A stretch of DNA of 48,402 bases from Candidatus Omnitrophota bacterium (GTDB taxonomy: Bacteria; Omnitrophota; Gorgyraeia; Aquiviventales; Aquiviventaceae): the NCBI GenBank assembly GCA_016180575.1, contig JACPAY010000007.1, positions 77,642-126,043 of the forward strand, written 5' to 3'. A program made the translations under genes and the position numbers. How positions within the stretch are numbered: position 1 is the first letter of the stretch; the number at the start of each line of letters is the position of its first letter. Positions 5,226-9,613 of this stretch are shown here, one piece after another. Below the pieces are notes generated by a model. The model was not told the origin of the DNA, searched no databases, and saw only the letters and a list, made by a program, of their open reading frames with translations.

Positions 5226-6548
5226 ATGGGATTCCAGGCCGTCCGGGGCACAACCGATCTCCTGCCCGACGAGGTGGCGCGCTGGTCCGCGGTGGAGCAC
5301 ACCGCCAGGCGCCTGTCCCGCCTGTACGGCTACCGAGAGATCCGCACCCCCATCATCGAGGAGGCCGGCCTCTTCCTGCGCTCGGTCGGCGAGACCACCG
5401 ACATCATCCAGAAAGAGATGTTCCGCTTCGAGGACCGGGGCGGGCACGACCTCGTCCTGCGGCCCGAGGCGACCGCCTCCGTCGTCCGCGCCTACCTGGA
5501 GCACCACCTCCACAAGACCGAGGGGTTCGCGAAGCTGTTCTATCTTGGCCCCATGTTCCGGGCCGAGCGGCCGCAGGCCGGCCGGTTCCGGCAGTTCCAT
5601 CAGTTCGGGGTGGAGGCGATCGGCTCCGGCAGCGCCTGGGTGGACGTCGAGGCGATCCTGCTCTGCGCACAGATCCTGCGCGCCTGCGGCCTGCCTGCCG
5701 CGCTACCGTCGCAACCGACTGGCGCGGCGCAGGCAGGCGTCGCCGGCGCGACCGTCTGGCTCGCCAGCATGGGATGCCGCGCGGACCAGAAGCGCTCGGC
5801 CGAGGCGCTGCGCAAGCGGTTGAGCCCGCACCGCGCCAAGCTGTGCAAGGAGTGCCAGGCGCGGTTTGACAAGAACGTCTTCCGCGTCCTCGACTGCAAG
5901 AACCCCTCCTGCCGCGCGATCGCCTGGGAAACACCCGGCTCGCCCTTCCTGCTCTGCGACGCCTGCGCCGCGCACTTCGACGAGGTGCGCCGGGGTGTGC
6001 GCGAGGCCGGCGTGGCGTTCGACGACACCAAGGTCTTCGCGCGGGGGCTGGACTACTACACCCGCACCGTCTTCGAGGTCCGCGTCCAGGGCCTCGGCGC
6101 CCAGGACGCGGTCGCGGCGGGCGGGCGGTACGACCACCTCGTCGAGGAGCTGGGGGGGCCTCCGCTCGGCGCGGTGGGATTTGCCGCCGGCATCGAGCGG
6201 CTCCTGATGGCGCTCAAGCAGGGCGCCGCCGAGGCCCCGAGCCCCGCGCGGCGCGGCGTGTACCTTGCGGTCGCGCAGGCGGCGCTGCTGGGCGACGGCT
6301 TCCGCCTCGTGCACCGCCTGCGCGAGCGGGGGGTGGCGGCGCTCATGGACTACGACGGCAAGAGCCTCAAGGCGCAGCTGCGGGAGGCGGACAAGCTCGG
6401 CTGCCGGCTCGTTGCGATCCTCGGCGAAGCGGAGCGGACGCAGGGCGCGATGACGCTCAAGGACCTGGAGCAGGGCAGCCAGCAGACCGTCGCGCTCGAC
6501 GCCTTTGTGGAGGAAGCCGCGAAACAGGCCAAGGCTACATGCCATTGA
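5226..6548 (+). CDS. hisS: Histidine--tRNA ligase
   Basis: VRGTTD, LRPEATA, FRAERPQAGRFRQFHQ, RGLDYY, GGRYD, GFAAGIER. Confidence 0.99.
   Translation: MGFQAVRGTTDLLPDEVARWSAVEHTARRLSRLYGYREIRTPIIEEAGLFLRSVGETTDIIQKEMFRFEDRGGHDLVLRPEATASVVRAYLEHHLHKTEGFAKLFYLGPMFRAERPQAGRFRQFHQFGVEAIGSGSAWVDVEAILLCAQILRACGLPAALPSQPTGAAQAGVAGATVWLASMGCRADQKRSAEALRKRLSPHRAKLCKECQARFDKNVFRVLDCKNPSCRAIAWETPGSPFLLCDACAAHFDEVRRGVREAGVAFDDTKVFARGLDYYTRTVFEVRVQGLGAQDAVAAGGRYDHLVEELGGPPLGAVGFAAGIERLLMALKQGAAEAPSPARRGVYLAVAQAALLGDGFRLVHRLRERGVAALMDYDGKSLKAQLREADKLGCRLVAILGEAERTQGAMTLKDLEQGSQQTVALDAFVEEAAKQAKATCH
5689..5738. repeat. In-frame palindromic insertion in hisS (LPAALPSQPTGAAQAG)
   Basis: gcctgcctgc / gcaggcaggc perfect 10-bp stem enclosing cgcgcta..gtcg-caac-cgac..tggcgcg. 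Confidence 0.85.
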
Positions 6549-6582
6549 ACACGATTGGCTGCTCCGCCGAACACCTACGTGT

Positions 6583-6681
6583 GGCCGCGGGTGACGCGGA
6601 GCCGGGGACCCCGCCGCCTGCCCGCAGGCCGACGAGGCCGAGGACAGCCGGCGGGGTGGCGGCGCGGCAGGACCCGCGGCC
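6583..6681. repeat. ~100-nt rod-like palindromic element, copy 1 (hisS-aspS intergenic)
   Basis: 10-bp terminal IR ggccgcgggt/acccgcggcc; inner accccgccg/cggcggggt; near-identical to 8661-8769 except the apical hairpin. Confidence 0.9.
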
Positions 6682-6701
6682 TTTGGATTTTGGATTCCGT
6701 C

Positions 6702-8108
6702 ATGATGCGCACGCACGGCTGCGGCGAGCTGCGGGAGGCCGACATCGGGCGGGCGGTCACGCTCTGCGGCTGGCTCCACCGGCGGCGAGACCACGGCGGC
6801 GTGAGCTTCCTCGACCTGCGCGACCGCTCGGGCCTGGCCCAGGTCGTCTTCAACGCGAAGACTCAGCCCGCGCTCCACCAGCAGGCCAAGGGGTTCGGCC
6901 CCGAGTACGTCCTGCGCATCGAGGGCGCCGTGCGCGCCCGCCCGAAGGGGTCGGAGAACCCCAAGCTCCCCTCCGGCATGGTCGAGGTCGAGGCGACCGC
7001 GGTCACCGTGCTGAACCCCGCCGTGGCGCCGCCGTTTGAAATCGACGATCAGGGGGACCTCTCGGAGGACGTGCGCATGCAGTGGCGCTACCTCGACCTC
7101 CGGCGGCCCGCGAGCCAGCAGAAGCTCATCCTGCGCCACCGCGTCATCCACCGCATCCGAGACGTCCTGGACCGGCTGCAGTTCGTCGAGGTGGAAACGC
7201 CCATCCTCACGAAGTCCACGCCGGAGGGCGCGCGCGACTACCTCGTGCCCTCGCGCCTCAACCAGGGGCGGTTCTTCGCGCTGCCCCAATCGCCGCAGCT
7301 CTTCAAGCAGCTCCTCATGGTGGCGGGCCTGGAGCGCTACTTCCAGATCGCCCGCTGCTTCCGCGACGAAGACCTGCGGGCCGACCGCCAGCCGGAGTTC
7401 ACCCAGCTGGACCTGGAGATGTCCTTCATCGAGGAGGAGGACGTCTTCGCCGTCATCGAGGAAATACTCGGCGAGGTGTTCCAGGAGGCGCTCGGCGTGG
7501 CGCTGCCGCGGCCGTTCCCCCGCCTGACCCACCGGCAGGCGCTGGCGGCCCATCAGACCGAGAAGCCCGACCTGCACACCGAGCGTCTGCCGTGGGCCTT
7601 CTGCTGGGTGACCGAGTTCCCGCTCTTCCAGTGGGATGACCAGGGCAAGCGCTGGGAGGCCGCGCATCACCCGTTCACCTCCCCGCACCCCGAGGACCTT
7701 TCGCGGCTCGCCGGCGAGCCGGGCACGGTGCGCGCGCGGGCCTACGATCTCGTCCTCAACGGCGTCGAGCTCGGCTCAGGGAGCATCCGGATCCATGACG
7801 CGGCGCTGCAGCGCCGCGTGTTCGCGGTCCTGGGCCTTGAGGAGGCGATCGTGCAGGAACGGTTCGGGTTCCTCCTGCAGGCGTTCACGTACGGCGCCCC
7901 GCCGCATGGGGGGTTCGCCCTGGGCCTCGACCGGCTCGTGGCGCTCATGACGCGCACCCCCTCCATCCGAGATGTCATTGCGTTTCCGAAAACCCAAAAA
8001 GCCGTGGACCCGGTCACCGAGGCGCCATCGTCCGTCACCGAGACGCAGTTGAAGGAATTGGGGATCGCCGTGCTCACCGCAAAAGCCAAAGGAGGTCGTG
8101 ATGCCTAG
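6702..8108 (+). CDS. aspS: Aspartate--tRNA(Asp/Asn) ligase, bacterial type lacking the GAD insertion domain
   Basis: MRTHGCG, RRDHGG, PEGARDYLVPSR, ALPQSPQLFKQ, FRDEDLRADRQPEFTQLD, GAPPHGG, IRDVIAFPK; only ~468 aa. Confidence 0.97.
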   Translation: MMRTHGCGELREADIGRAVTLCGWLHRRRDHGGVSFLDLRDRSGLAQVVFNAKTQPALHQQAKGFGPEYVLRIEGAVRARPKGSENPKLPSGMVEVEATAVTVLNPAVAPPFEIDDQGDLSEDVRMQWRYLDLRRPASQQKLILRHRVIHRIRDVLDRLQFVEVETPILTKSTPEGARDYLVPSRLNQGRFFALPQSPQLFKQLLMVAGLERYFQIARCFRDEDLRADRQPEFTQLDLEMSFIEEEDVFAVIEEILGEVFQEALGVALPRPFPRLTHRQALAAHQTEKPDLHTERLPWAFCWVTEFPLFQWDDQGKRWEAAHHPFTSPHPEDLSRLAGEPGTVRARAYDLVLNGVELGSGSIRIHDAALQRRVFAVLGLEEAIVQERFGFLLQAFTYGAPPHGGFALGLDRLVALMTRTPSIRDVIAFPKTQKAVDPVTEAPSSVTETQLKELGIAVLTAKAKGGRDA

Positions 8109-8649
8109 AGCGAGTTGGACCGTGCTCGGCGCAGGATGCGCGCTGCTCCTCGCCGGGTGCCGCGCCGCTACCAAGGTGGTGGACGTCCCGCGCGTGGATC
8201 TGGAGCTGGCGGGCGGCAACCGCGGCTATCTCATCGGAAGCCCCCCTGAGGCGGGCGAGCTGAAGACGACGCGCCAGATGATGGAGGCCACCGTCGAGGT
8301 GCCGAGCTTCTATAAGCCCAAGCGGCTCGGCGCGCCGGTCGGCGGCGGCGTCCCGGTCGCGCCGGAGGGCCTGATGCCATCCGAGCCGGAGACGGCCGGC
8401 GAGCCACAGGCCCCTCCGCAGCGGTACGACAGCTACGTCGTCCAGAAGGGCGACAGCCTCTGGTCCATCGCGGCCAAGCCGGAGGTCTATGGCAAGGCGA
8501 CCTACTGGCGGCGGCTCTTTGACGCCAACCGCGACCTGCTCAAGAGCCCGGACCACCTGAAGGCCGGCATGACGCTCAAGATCCCGCGCGGCGGCGAGGG
8601 CGCCGGCGAGACGATGTACGATGACGAGGGCATCAGCTATAAAAAGTGA
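8101..8649 (+). CDS. LysM-domain lipoprotein
   Basis: AAGGAGG RBS; lipobox LLAG-C; LysM YVVQKGDSLWSIA...LKIP. Confidence 0.9.
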   Translation: MPRASWTVLGAGCALLLAGCRAATKVVDVPRVDLELAGGNRGYLIGSPPEAGELKTTRQMMEATVEVPSFYKPKRLGAPVGGGVPVAPEGLMPSEPETAGEPQAPPQRYDSYVVQKGDSLWSIAAKPEVYGKATYWRRLFDANRDLLKSPDHLKAGMTLKIPRGGEGAGETMYDDEGISYKK

Positions 8650-8660
8650 GCGCGGGGAGG

Positions 8661-8769
8661 GGCCGCGGGTGACGCGGAGCCGGGGCCCCCGCCGCCTGCC
8701 CGCAGTCCCGCCGATGGCGGGACGAGGACAGCCGGCGGGGTGGCGGCGCGGCAGGACCGTGGTCTCCCG
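8661..8769. repeat. ~100-nt rod-like palindromic element, copy 2 (5' end of phoH)
   Basis: Matches 6583-6674 apart from one substitution and the apical hairpin (gtcccgcc-gat-ggcgggac). Confidence 0.9.
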
Positions 8770-9613
8770 CGGCGATGAGATCAAGGTCAGCGGCGAGGAG
8801 GCGGCCGTGGGCCAGGCGATGCGGCTCTTCGATGACCTCCTGATCGTCATCCGCTCAGGCGCGCCCCTGCGCAAGGACGACGTCGACTACGCCCTGCGCG
8901 CGCTGCGGGATCCCCGCCTGATCCAGCTGCGCCAGGTCTACGAGGAGCGGATCGAGGTGCCCTCCAAGCGGCGGTTCGTCATCCCGCGCACGCCGGGGCA
9001 GAAGGCCTACGTGGACGCGATGCGCTCGCATGACATCGTCTTCGCCATCGGGCCTGCGGGGACAGGCAAGAGCTTCCTTGCGATGGCCATGGCGGTCGAG
9101 AATCTCACAAAGGGCGAGGTCTCGCGGATCATCCTCACGCGGCCCGCGGTGGAAGCGGGTGAGCGGCTCGGCTACCTGCCGGGCGCGCTGGAGGAGAAGG
9201 TCCACCCCTACCTGCGGCCGCTCTACGACGCGCTCTACGAGATGATGGAGATCGACATGGTCCAGCGCTACCTCGACCGCGGCATCATCGAGGTGGCCCC
9301 GCTCGCGTTCATGCGCGGCCGCACGCTCAACGACGCCTTCATCGTCCTGGATGAGGCGCAGAACACGACGAGCGAGCAGATGAAGATGTTCCTCACCCGC
9401 CTCGGGTTCGATTCCAAGGCGGTCATCACCGGGGACATCACCCAGATCGACCTGCCGGCGGAGAAGCCCTCCGGGCTCATCCAGGTGCAGAAGCTGCTCG
9501 CATCGGTCCCGGGCATCAAGTTCGCCCTCTTCAGCGGCCAGGACGTCGTGCGGCACGAGCTGGTCCAGGCGATCATCCGCGCGTACGAGCAGGGCAACCA
9601 TCAGCCGGGCTGA
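8669..9613 (+). CDS. phoH: PhoH-like ATPase (YbeZ), start uncertain
   Basis: [49 protein letters not shown]; GTG8669 has a GGGGAGG RBS 8 nt upstream. Confidence 0.93.

Follow-up and report, generated by a model that had tools for sequence, protein, structure and literature searches.

A high-copy family of probable miniature transposable elements with a strand-specifically constrained hairpin core in Candidatus Omnitrophota

Introduction

The genome of an uncultured groundwater member of the Omnitrophota (1.308 Mb in 28 contigs, 68.9% GC, 84.6% complete; G000 below) carries two rod-shaped palindromes of about 100 nucleotides (nt), which stand 2 kb apart, one upstream of aspS and the other upstream of phoH. 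Both lie in the 48,402-nt stretch of one contig analyzed here, referred to as the window. A first-pass annotation, made from the letters alone, described them as a duplicated element with an exchangeable apical hairpin and proposed an undescribed MITE-like or structured cis-RNA family. The locus raises the question of what this element is, how it reached the two sites, and why so elaborate a fold has been kept.

We compared the two copies with each other, with the remaining copies in the host genome, and with genomes of the same genus, family, order, class, and phylum. The element probably belongs to the miniature, non-autonomous transposable elements (MITEs) and forms a high-copy family within Candidatus Omnitrophota, with a core whose conservation exceeds that of the transposon ends surrounding it.

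Results

Two near-identical copies in the window

The features of the window that bear on the two copies are listed below; G001 is the sister genome (same genus, 92% nucleotide identity), and R1 is a covariance model of the element built from 36 seed sequences.

5226..6548, plus strand: ORF with a presumed hisS-like identity, ending in TGA at 6546-6548; upstream neighbor of copy 1
6560..6582, plus strand: type-A shell arm at the left end of copy 1, TGCTCCGCCGAACACCTACGTGT, with no right-hand counterpart; the arm family occurs at 21 genome copies
6583..6681, plus strand: copy 1, complete 99-nt core with outer stem 6583-6592/6672-6681; R1 86.3 bits, E = 2e-14
6627..6639, plus strand: tip hairpin of copy 1, GGCC-GACGA-GGCC, 13 nt; one of about 20 tip variants
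6682..6701, plus strand: spacer from copy 1 to the aspS start, TTTGGATTTTGGATTCCGTC, TTTGGAT-TTTGGAT; absent in G001
6702..8108, plus strand: aspS, 468 aa; native start ATGATG, which overlaps the hisS stop in G001
8098..8649, plus strand: upstream ORF, LysM-like by eye, ending in TGA at 8647-8649; 85% identical in G001
8661..8758, plus strand: copy 2, core without its last 7 nt, fused in frame to phoH; R1 75.8 bits
8669..8671, plus strand: candidate new phoH start, GTG in frame inside copy 2, with GGAGG 8 nt upstream
8705..8723, plus strand: tip hairpin of copy 2, GTCCCGCC-GAT-GGCGGGAC, 19 nt
8759..9613, plus strand: phoH remainder, whose first codon aligns with residue 36 of relatives

The reported near-identity of the two copies was confirmed: positions 6583-6630 match 8661-8708 at 96% and positions 6636-6674 match 8720-8758 at 97%, the differences being one bulge base (A6608 versus C) and the tip (13 versus 19 nt). 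The stacked stems listed in the first-pass annotation hold for copy 1, in which the outer stem is complete and the rod fold reaches -73.7 kcal/mol (z = -4.9), a stability equaled by none of 200 shuffles; its reverse strand folds equally well (-75.7). They hold only in part for copy 2, which folds more weakly (-71.6, z = -3.0) and ends at C8758 (GGCAGGACC), directly followed by phoH GTGGTCTCC, so that its last 7 bases are absent and the outer stem has no 3' half. Most of the sequence that had been seen as another hairpin (6549-6582) belongs to the element itself, as its left terminal arm. Both copies are open and in frame with the downstream gene, as had been noted, but five of the six frames of each are open, and openness is therefore weak evidence by itself. 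A scan for promoters and terminators around both copies gave nothing above shuffles.

The possibility that the second copy is an assembly artefact, raised at the outset, was set against contigs from four public DNA runs of one study, which may include the source sample. These contigs enter both copies from unique flanks and break inside them, none spans copy 1, and read depth rises about 100-fold from the flanks into the element. Because the contigs of all four runs read in from unique flanks, the window copies are not an invention of the assembly. One contig of run X2 bridges the interval from the LysM-like gene to phoH, where 102 different letters replace the 107 found in the window (8649-8757); this suggests a variant of copy 2, probably with another tip, in the same population.

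The hisS-aspS and phoH junctions

In the sister genome, the hisS stop and the aspS start overlap (...CCATCGATGATGCGC; CGATGATG) with nothing between them, and the DNA is 92% identical to the hisS-like ORF up to its stop. The host genome has 153 extra bases at this junction, consisting of the left arm, the core, and the TTTGGAT-TTTGGAT spacer. Judging by BLAST coordinates, hisS and aspS also adjoin each other, directly or almost directly, in G023, G019, and G011, and the element is absent from the copy 1 site in these three genomes and in G001. Across 11 orthologous loci of relatives for the two window sites, model R1 returned no match, so no copy is held at a fixed place.

The PhoH N-terminus comprises a conserved stretch of 35 residues in all five relatives compared (MAEQSL..LRN.QEA.ALFG.HD.HLRK.E.ALGVS), followed by VV/IV.RG. 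In the host genome, this stretch and the intergenic DNA are gone and the truncated core abuts the remaining gene. Since the conserved N-terminal stretch is lost, phoH would be either disabled or restarted. The GTG at 8669 may serve as the new start; ATG 8714 and GTG 8759 are further in-frame candidates read from the sequence.

Between the LysM-like gene and phoH, the sister genome (L191/L196) carries a different palindrome composed of AATGCGG-like heptamers, followed by an intact phoH start, and at other intergenic sites, too, the two genomes differ in the hairpin families present. As regards the neighboring aspS, the closest named AspRS locus belongs to a Candidatus Omnitrophota metagenome-assembled genome (77% identity). 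After this one Omnitrophota match, the best matches of the 468-aa protein come from Patescibacteria/CPR genomes and are equally short (44-53%), and the longer AspRS forms of Chloroflexota and Bacillota match in pieces only; the short form is possibly shared with CPR.

Copy number and anatomy of the family

The element, first described from two copies, is present in the host genome in 78 copies according to nhmmer (79 non-overlapping copies according to blastn), about one per 17 kb. Most of them stand exactly at gene boundaries and many are truncated; six of the 78 lie inside long ORFs, as called by our own GC3-periodicity heuristic, which looks for a same-frame coding signal on both sides of a copy. 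The element measures 99-145 nt, occurs in either orientation, and has no coding capacity of its own. Each copy is built of three layers, namely an outer shell of terminal inverted repeats, an imperfect hairpin core of about 90 nt, and a hypervariable tip hairpin.

The common core reads GGGTGACGCGGAGCC..GGGG.CCCC...CGCAG [tip] GAGGAC...GGGGTGGCG..GCGGCAGGACCC. In the 75 of 78 copies that could be parsed, the tip takes 24 distinct forms, three of which are parsing artefacts. The commonest tip, GGCGAAGGCC, is found in 18 copies, that of copy 1 in 11, and that of copy 2 in four copies exactly and in six as an ATC variant. Six bases outside GGG/CCC vary between copies yet stay complementary.

The same core is surrounded by different shells. 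Shell A consists of TGCTCTGTCGAATACCTCGCTG followed by GGCCGC, with the inverse on the opposite side, and its TGCTCTGTCGAA... sequence was counted at 21 left ends and 10 right ends; copy 1 belongs to this type but has the left arm only, and type-A arms are present in other genera too. Shell B reads GGTGCTGTCTCAATTTGGC..., again with the inverse on the opposite side, and its inverted repeat (GGTGCTGTCTCAATTTGG and the complement) is found at both ends of 13 copies. At least two rarer terminal contexts, of the CTAGAA...ATCCCAAAACC type and of the TGGTTCAATGG type, occur in the host genome as well. A core-less shell-B element of 53 nt lies at C8:22828-22880, and no empty shell-A element was found in this genome.

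Other repeats are associated with some copies. A second hairpin repeat family (TCCTTCGACTCGGCCTTCGGCC...GAGCGACCCACGGGAGTCGAGGGA) is nested in the copies at C10:11346-11490, C5:10838, C14:3411, and C21:263-384 of the host genome, and a third insert directly follows GGGTGACGCG in two copies (C21:58337 and C25:26680). At C25:32159, a 19-nt hairpin one base off the tips GTCCCGCCATCGGCGGGAC/GTCCCGCCGATGGCGGGAC tops an unrelated hairpin repeat, which hints that tips may be exchanged between hairpin families. With regard to tips as possible independent mobile units, a search for the 19-nt tip with at most one mismatch gave one site outside the element and a search for the 13-nt tip of copy 1 gave two exact ones, a number too small for any inference. 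Two left-truncated copies (C17:25589 and C7:20906) directly adjoin a start codon, and the codons after it are identical in both (ATG GCT CGC C), either by coincidence or because a gene start is repeated.

Target duplications and a candidate IS1-family partner

Complete copies bear direct repeats of the kind left by transposition. Among 13 complete shell-B copies, ten are flanked by a perfect 8-bp direct repeat, two by a near-perfect one (6/8 and 7/8), and one by none. The five complete shell-A copies include one with a perfect 9-bp repeat, two with 8/9, one with 7/9, and one with none. In other genera, a perfect 9-bp repeat was found in G041, and perfect 8-bp repeats are also present in G001 and G020. 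A clean target duplication was seen at neither window copy, copy 2 having no arms and copy 1 only the left one, so the assignment of these two copies to MITEs rests on the family.

A candidate partner element of 2,299 bp lies at C24:52763-55061 of the host genome. It has about 45% GC within a 69% GC genome, and its mutually inverted ends read GGTAGTGTCCTAATTTGG and GGTACTGTCCTAATTTGC, the first of which agrees with GGTGGTGTCTCAATTTGG, a variant of the shell-B end, in 15 of 18 positions. Read on its minus strand, C24 has the order CCCCGGCC, shell-B MITE, CCCCGGCC, GGTAGTGTCCTAATTTGG...IS...CAAATTAGGACAGTACC, CCCCGGCC, with the same 8-mer three times; judging from this arrangement, the simplest reading would be that one machinery inserted twice in succession at a single target. 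The 275-aa ORF of the partner matches the Pfam DDE_Tnp_IS1 domain with 40.9 bits (cut-off 24.1), although over profile positions 82-115 of 131 only. With the NCBIfam transpos_IS1 model, it scores 74.6 bits, which is the best of five families and lies under the curated cut-off of 100; annotated IS1 family transposases share 38-42% identity with it across 96% of the ORF. Matches to the IS6 Pfam model stayed below threshold. IS1 elements generate target duplications of 8-9 bp. GGnnnTG ends are common to the IS1 and IS6 families, according to PMC6807381.

The partner IS does not contain the core sequence, so its transposase needs no core in cis. Moreover, because only about 18 nt of the ends are shared, the element is not a simple deletion derivative of this IS. 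The partner carries two or three further ORFs and looks recently acquired; further low-GC islands (42-48% GC) are present at C8:25251-27750 and C24:78251-81250. IS1-like genes were found in three of the 35 genomes of the family, and the element in 25 of the 34 others, all counts being drawn from incomplete metagenome assemblies. In G023, G007, and other genomes, the IS1-like ORFs are found in comparable low-GC patches, which also contain comparable end-like sequences. No clear inverted repeats could be recognized at the ends of an annotated IS1 family element from a Hoeflea plasmid, so that these ends allowed no comparison.

ISL3, considered as the shell-A partner, is present in three of 35 genomes, but its loci have no shell-A-like ends. 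A long parent element was sought through half-length BLAST matches in relatives, most of which proved to be whole diverged copies; the few others are one-sided fragments, and their second half was not found within about 3 kb. Empty sites of shell-B copies were sought in the sister genome for three copies: two of the intergenic regions were not alignable, of which one contains a different hairpin family and the second a fragment that bears the GGGTGACGCGG motif, and the third had no counterpart.

Distribution across the phylum

By blastn, the element is present in 19 of the 24 other genera that belong to the family and, within the order, in one additional family; 15 other families of the class gave no match. 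The covariance-model scan of related genomes that the first-pass annotation had recommended reached further. Of 37 genomes of the order, 28 gave R1 matches. In the class sample (151 genomes), at least 18 were positive, the highest number of scored copies being at least 23, in a genome of another family; in the phylum sample (also 151 genomes), at least 12 were positive, including three that lie outside the class. The class and phylum counts are lower bounds, because these samples were screened with stricter filters and at most 25 candidates were scored per genome. Copies in other genomes number in the hundreds. As expected for a mobile element, the distribution is patchy.

Structural constraint on the core

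To describe the core, 64 distinct sequences from about 37 genomes were aligned over 23 modeled pairs; standard pairs occupy 98.3% of the cells, a figure to be read with the fact that the alignment was fitted to the model, which favors pairing. Double-sided changes are present in 15 of the 23 pairs (207 cells), none of 500 shuffles reaches any of five covariation measures, and the covariation score of 0.408 falls to 0.074 or less when the partner is slid by one to three columns. The five outermost pairs of the outer stem show no one-sided change in any of the 64 sequences.

The exceptions to standard pairing are strongly asymmetric, with 74 G-T/T-G cells versus two A-C/C-A cells, or 29 versus two when the one pair that is usually G-T is left out. 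In the host genome alone, where copies were found by sequence only, one stem comprises 13 G-T, one T-G, and three C-A pairs and 26 compensated T-A pairs, and some stems follow the path G-C to G-U to A-U. Because G-T cells far outnumber A-C cells, one particular strand must pair.

The unpaired bases are nearly invariant, GGGTGAC being present in 58, CG[CG]AG in 63, GAGGAC in 54, and GGCAGGNCC in 60 of the 64 sequences. They persist in copies of other families with 64-68% GC, in which the stems compensate (CGC/GCG to CAC/GUG). The internal loop GGA/GCA is replaced by plain pairing in some genera, and is thus not essential. When 21 left and 10 right shell-A arms are compared between copies, they are 69-70% identical, versus 92% over the 45 nt of core next to them. 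Judged from these alignments, the core interior is better kept than the transposon ends, independently of them and phylum-wide.

Private inverted flanks around the core

A different kind of end was found in G114 (about 55% GC), in which 19 of the 20 copies examined, out of at least 23, have the core bracketed by a private inverted repeat of 8-16 nt (median 13). The distal parts of these flanks are unrelated between copies (33% identity), and neither a common end nor a direct repeat was seen in the 20 copies. Template-switch correction of quasi-palindromes could create such private inverted flanks after insertion. The flanks fit with insertion into existing hairpins, with inverted duplication at insertion, or with later growth of a palindrome by template switching, and they also fit with the absence of one-sided change in the five outermost pairs.

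For the in-ORF copy of G114, the limits of the insertion could not be delimited, as it lies in a linker of a giant repeat protein whose homologs carry unrelated inserts. In a repeated module of giant Omnitrophota proteins (open frames of 1,700-6,300 aa) of G114 and its relatives (L227, L238-L242), one linker carries translated hairpin inserts that differ from genome to genome, with peptides of the VIARSPKD...-type among others, and looks like a recurrent landing site.

Relation to known RNA and repeat families

Relative to flanking genes that run in the same direction as each other, the orientation of the element is random in two genomes (about 30 same and 27 opposite in G000; 10:7 in G114), so the core is not a cis-acting signal for neighboring genes. 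The structured cis-RNA proposal is accordingly to be divided: random orientation and the lack of any match in 11 orthologous loci speak against cis-regulation, while the part that concerns structure stands, the fold being under strong strand-specific constraint.

At gathering scores, Rfam 15 yields only tRNA in the window, and E-value scans of copy 1 and of one G019 copy returned microRNA-type chance matches of 10-18 bits versus gathering scores of 45-90; the absence from Rfam that had been expected is borne out at both kinds of threshold. Plasmid and phage collections gave no match to the element. Among the papers listed, judged by titles and the beginnings of abstracts, none joins Omnitrophota with MITEs or describes such palindromic repeats, and the main text of a MITE census (PMC11602168) does not contain 'Omnitroph', while its supplements may list such elements. 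The term undescribed is consistent with these collections and, for the literature, extends as far as titles and the beginnings of abstracts. A reading of the basal loop as a k-turn, made by eye, was dropped; two sheared pairs are expected in that motif, and one of them is impossible here. An integron attC site was also considered; the copies stand between housekeeping genes with no cassette array.

Discussion

The description of the element as MITE-like is borne out at the level of the family by its inverted repeats, 8- and 9-bp duplications, IS1-family partner ends, and lack of an insertion at the hisS-aspS site of the sister genome. A match to an IS end, which the first-pass annotation had regarded as speaking against its proposal, was found for the outer shell of one subtype and not for the core. 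The shells bear the hallmarks of a DDE transposase acting by cut-and-paste or copy-and-paste, with target duplications of 8 bp around shell B and 9 bp around shell A. We consider it probable that the family consists of MITEs, and an IS1-family transposase may move the shell-B copies in trans. Copy 1 is a lineage-specific insertion that separated the hisS stop from the aspS start, which had overlapped, and its right arm has been lost since; copy 2 is a truncated copy that replaced the first 35 phoH codons. Both would now be immobile relics, with phoH either disabled or restarted from a codon inside the element. The core may be kept because one strand must fold in single-stranded form, as DNA or RNA, during the life cycle of the element, and probably not for any service to neighboring genes. 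The family is a new one, with an IS1-family transposase as the probable mover at least in part, and is ordinary selfish DNA except for the core. The MITE model alone leaves the conservation of the core unexplained, as the transposase needs no core in cis, and a DDE mechanism does not predict the private inverted flanks of G114.

It is conceivable, though we hold it only tentatively, that the core of about 90 nt is a self-standing, strand-specific folded module, mobile or functional in its own right, which would spread by colonizing hairpins and MITE shells or by inverting flanks and would be read by a protein as single-stranded DNA or RNA. In its mobile form, which we regard as doubtful, the core would be a folded single-stranded DNA hairpin handled by another enzyme, with the IS1-type shells as colonized vehicles, and would land in the loops of existing hairpins, including mini-MITEs made of terminal inverted repeats only, or invert a copy of the flank. 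Such mobility would account for the same core in at least four terminal contexts in the host genome, the private flanks in 19 of 20 G114 copies, outer-stem pairs 1-5 without one-sided change, a core more conserved than the arms, the existence of the core-less 53-nt shell-B element, the tolerance of G-T and not of A-C, and the nesting of other hairpin families inside copies. However, no enzyme was found among the candidates looked for: Y1/RAYT genes are present in 25 of 35 genomes of the family, but they are missing in seven carriers and present in four non-carriers; the G000 gene (C24:16879-17208) is not flanked by copies; and the sole GIY-YIG match of that genome lies in a 952-aa frame (C21:8210) far from any copy. 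Furthermore, no shell-A element without a core was found in G000, the one in-ORF case tried sits in a linker that is variable in all homologs, and private flanks could arise after insertion by template switching. A functional structured RNA riding on, or spread by, the transposon, either an sRNA or an element that processes or stabilizes mRNA, is an unlikely explanation. It would agree with the near-invariant unpaired bases, with covariation of the intervening stems that extends to the 64-68% GC copies of other families, with the 74:2 wobble asymmetry, and with the G-C to G-U to A-U path; against it stand the nearly even orientation in both genomes, the empty orthologous loci, the many truncated copies and the six of 78 inside long ORFs, the internal loop swapped for plain pairing in some genera, and the lack of a promoter-like site around the window copies.

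We consider it very improbable that the element is the target of an Ssn-type nuclease or a REP/REPIN-type repeat mobilized by a RAYT (Y1 transposase), even though it is a palindromic, oriented, high-copy, mostly intergenic repeat and a Y1_Tnp gene is present in G000. Target duplications and inverted ends matching an IS1-family element argue against it, as do RAYT presence that does not track the element, a G000 gene without flanking copies, and the fact that no small GIY-YIG gene was found in G000 (genome 84.6% complete); in addition, the element is two to four times longer than the 20-50-nt Ssn motifs described in PMC11893778. An assembly artefact or a chance hairpin in GC-rich DNA deserves practically no credence: short-read contigs do break inside copies, but those of four runs enter both window copies and one bridges the second site, the family comprises 78 copies in G000 and hundreds elsewhere, and none of 200 shuffles folds as well.

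The probable MITE family and its IS1-family partner offer a testable transposon system for a phylum that has no cultured model. The element helps to explain small genomes littered with hairpins, in which essential genes are truncated or extended (phoH by the loss of 35 codons, hisS/aspS by splitting), and model R1 can be used in annotation to flag errors of start codons and N-termini at dozens of genes per genome. A MITE whose interior is under greater constraint than its ends is rare, and whatever reads it could reveal a new mode of protein-hairpin recognition or of movement. Should the core prove to be self-standing, it would represent a new layer of mobile DNA that parasitizes transposons.

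Among known systems, the family resembles bacterial MITEs such as Correia, ERIC, and MITEAba12, which, as reviewed in PMC10969869, are small, non-coding, high-copy elements with inverted repeats and target duplications, mostly intergenic and sometimes inside genes, able to fold into hairpins, and served by a transposase in trans. It differs from them in that its most conserved part is an asymmetric internal hairpin with covarying stems rather than the termini, that this core is common to at least two shell types and to distant families of the phylum, that the tip is a swappable module, and that the partner IS shares only about 18 nt of the ends. The partner itself is similar to the IS1 family in its GGnnnTG ends (PMC6807381), 8-bp duplication, DDE_Tnp_IS1 domain, and single-ORF transposase, and unlike it in its length of 2.3 kb, extra ORFs, GC content of about 45%, and score below the NCBIfam IS1 cut-off.

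The palindromic elements of Rickettsia (RPE), as summarized in PMC10969869, are likewise palindromic repeats of 100-150 bp in a small genome that can be translated in frame, as in the phoH fusion described here. In contrast to RPE, compared here by description, only six of the 78 copies lie in long ORFs and most stand at gene boundaries, and the present element has clear inverted ends, target duplications, and a candidate transposase. The hairpins of the REP/BIME-RAYT and NTS/SRM-Ssn systems share with it the character of oriented hairpin repeats and a plausible reading as folded single strands; according to PMC11893778, however, they measure 20-50 nt and flank the gene of their own enzyme, whereas the Omnitrophota element measures about 100-145 nt and is associated with neither a RAYT nor a small GIY-YIG gene.
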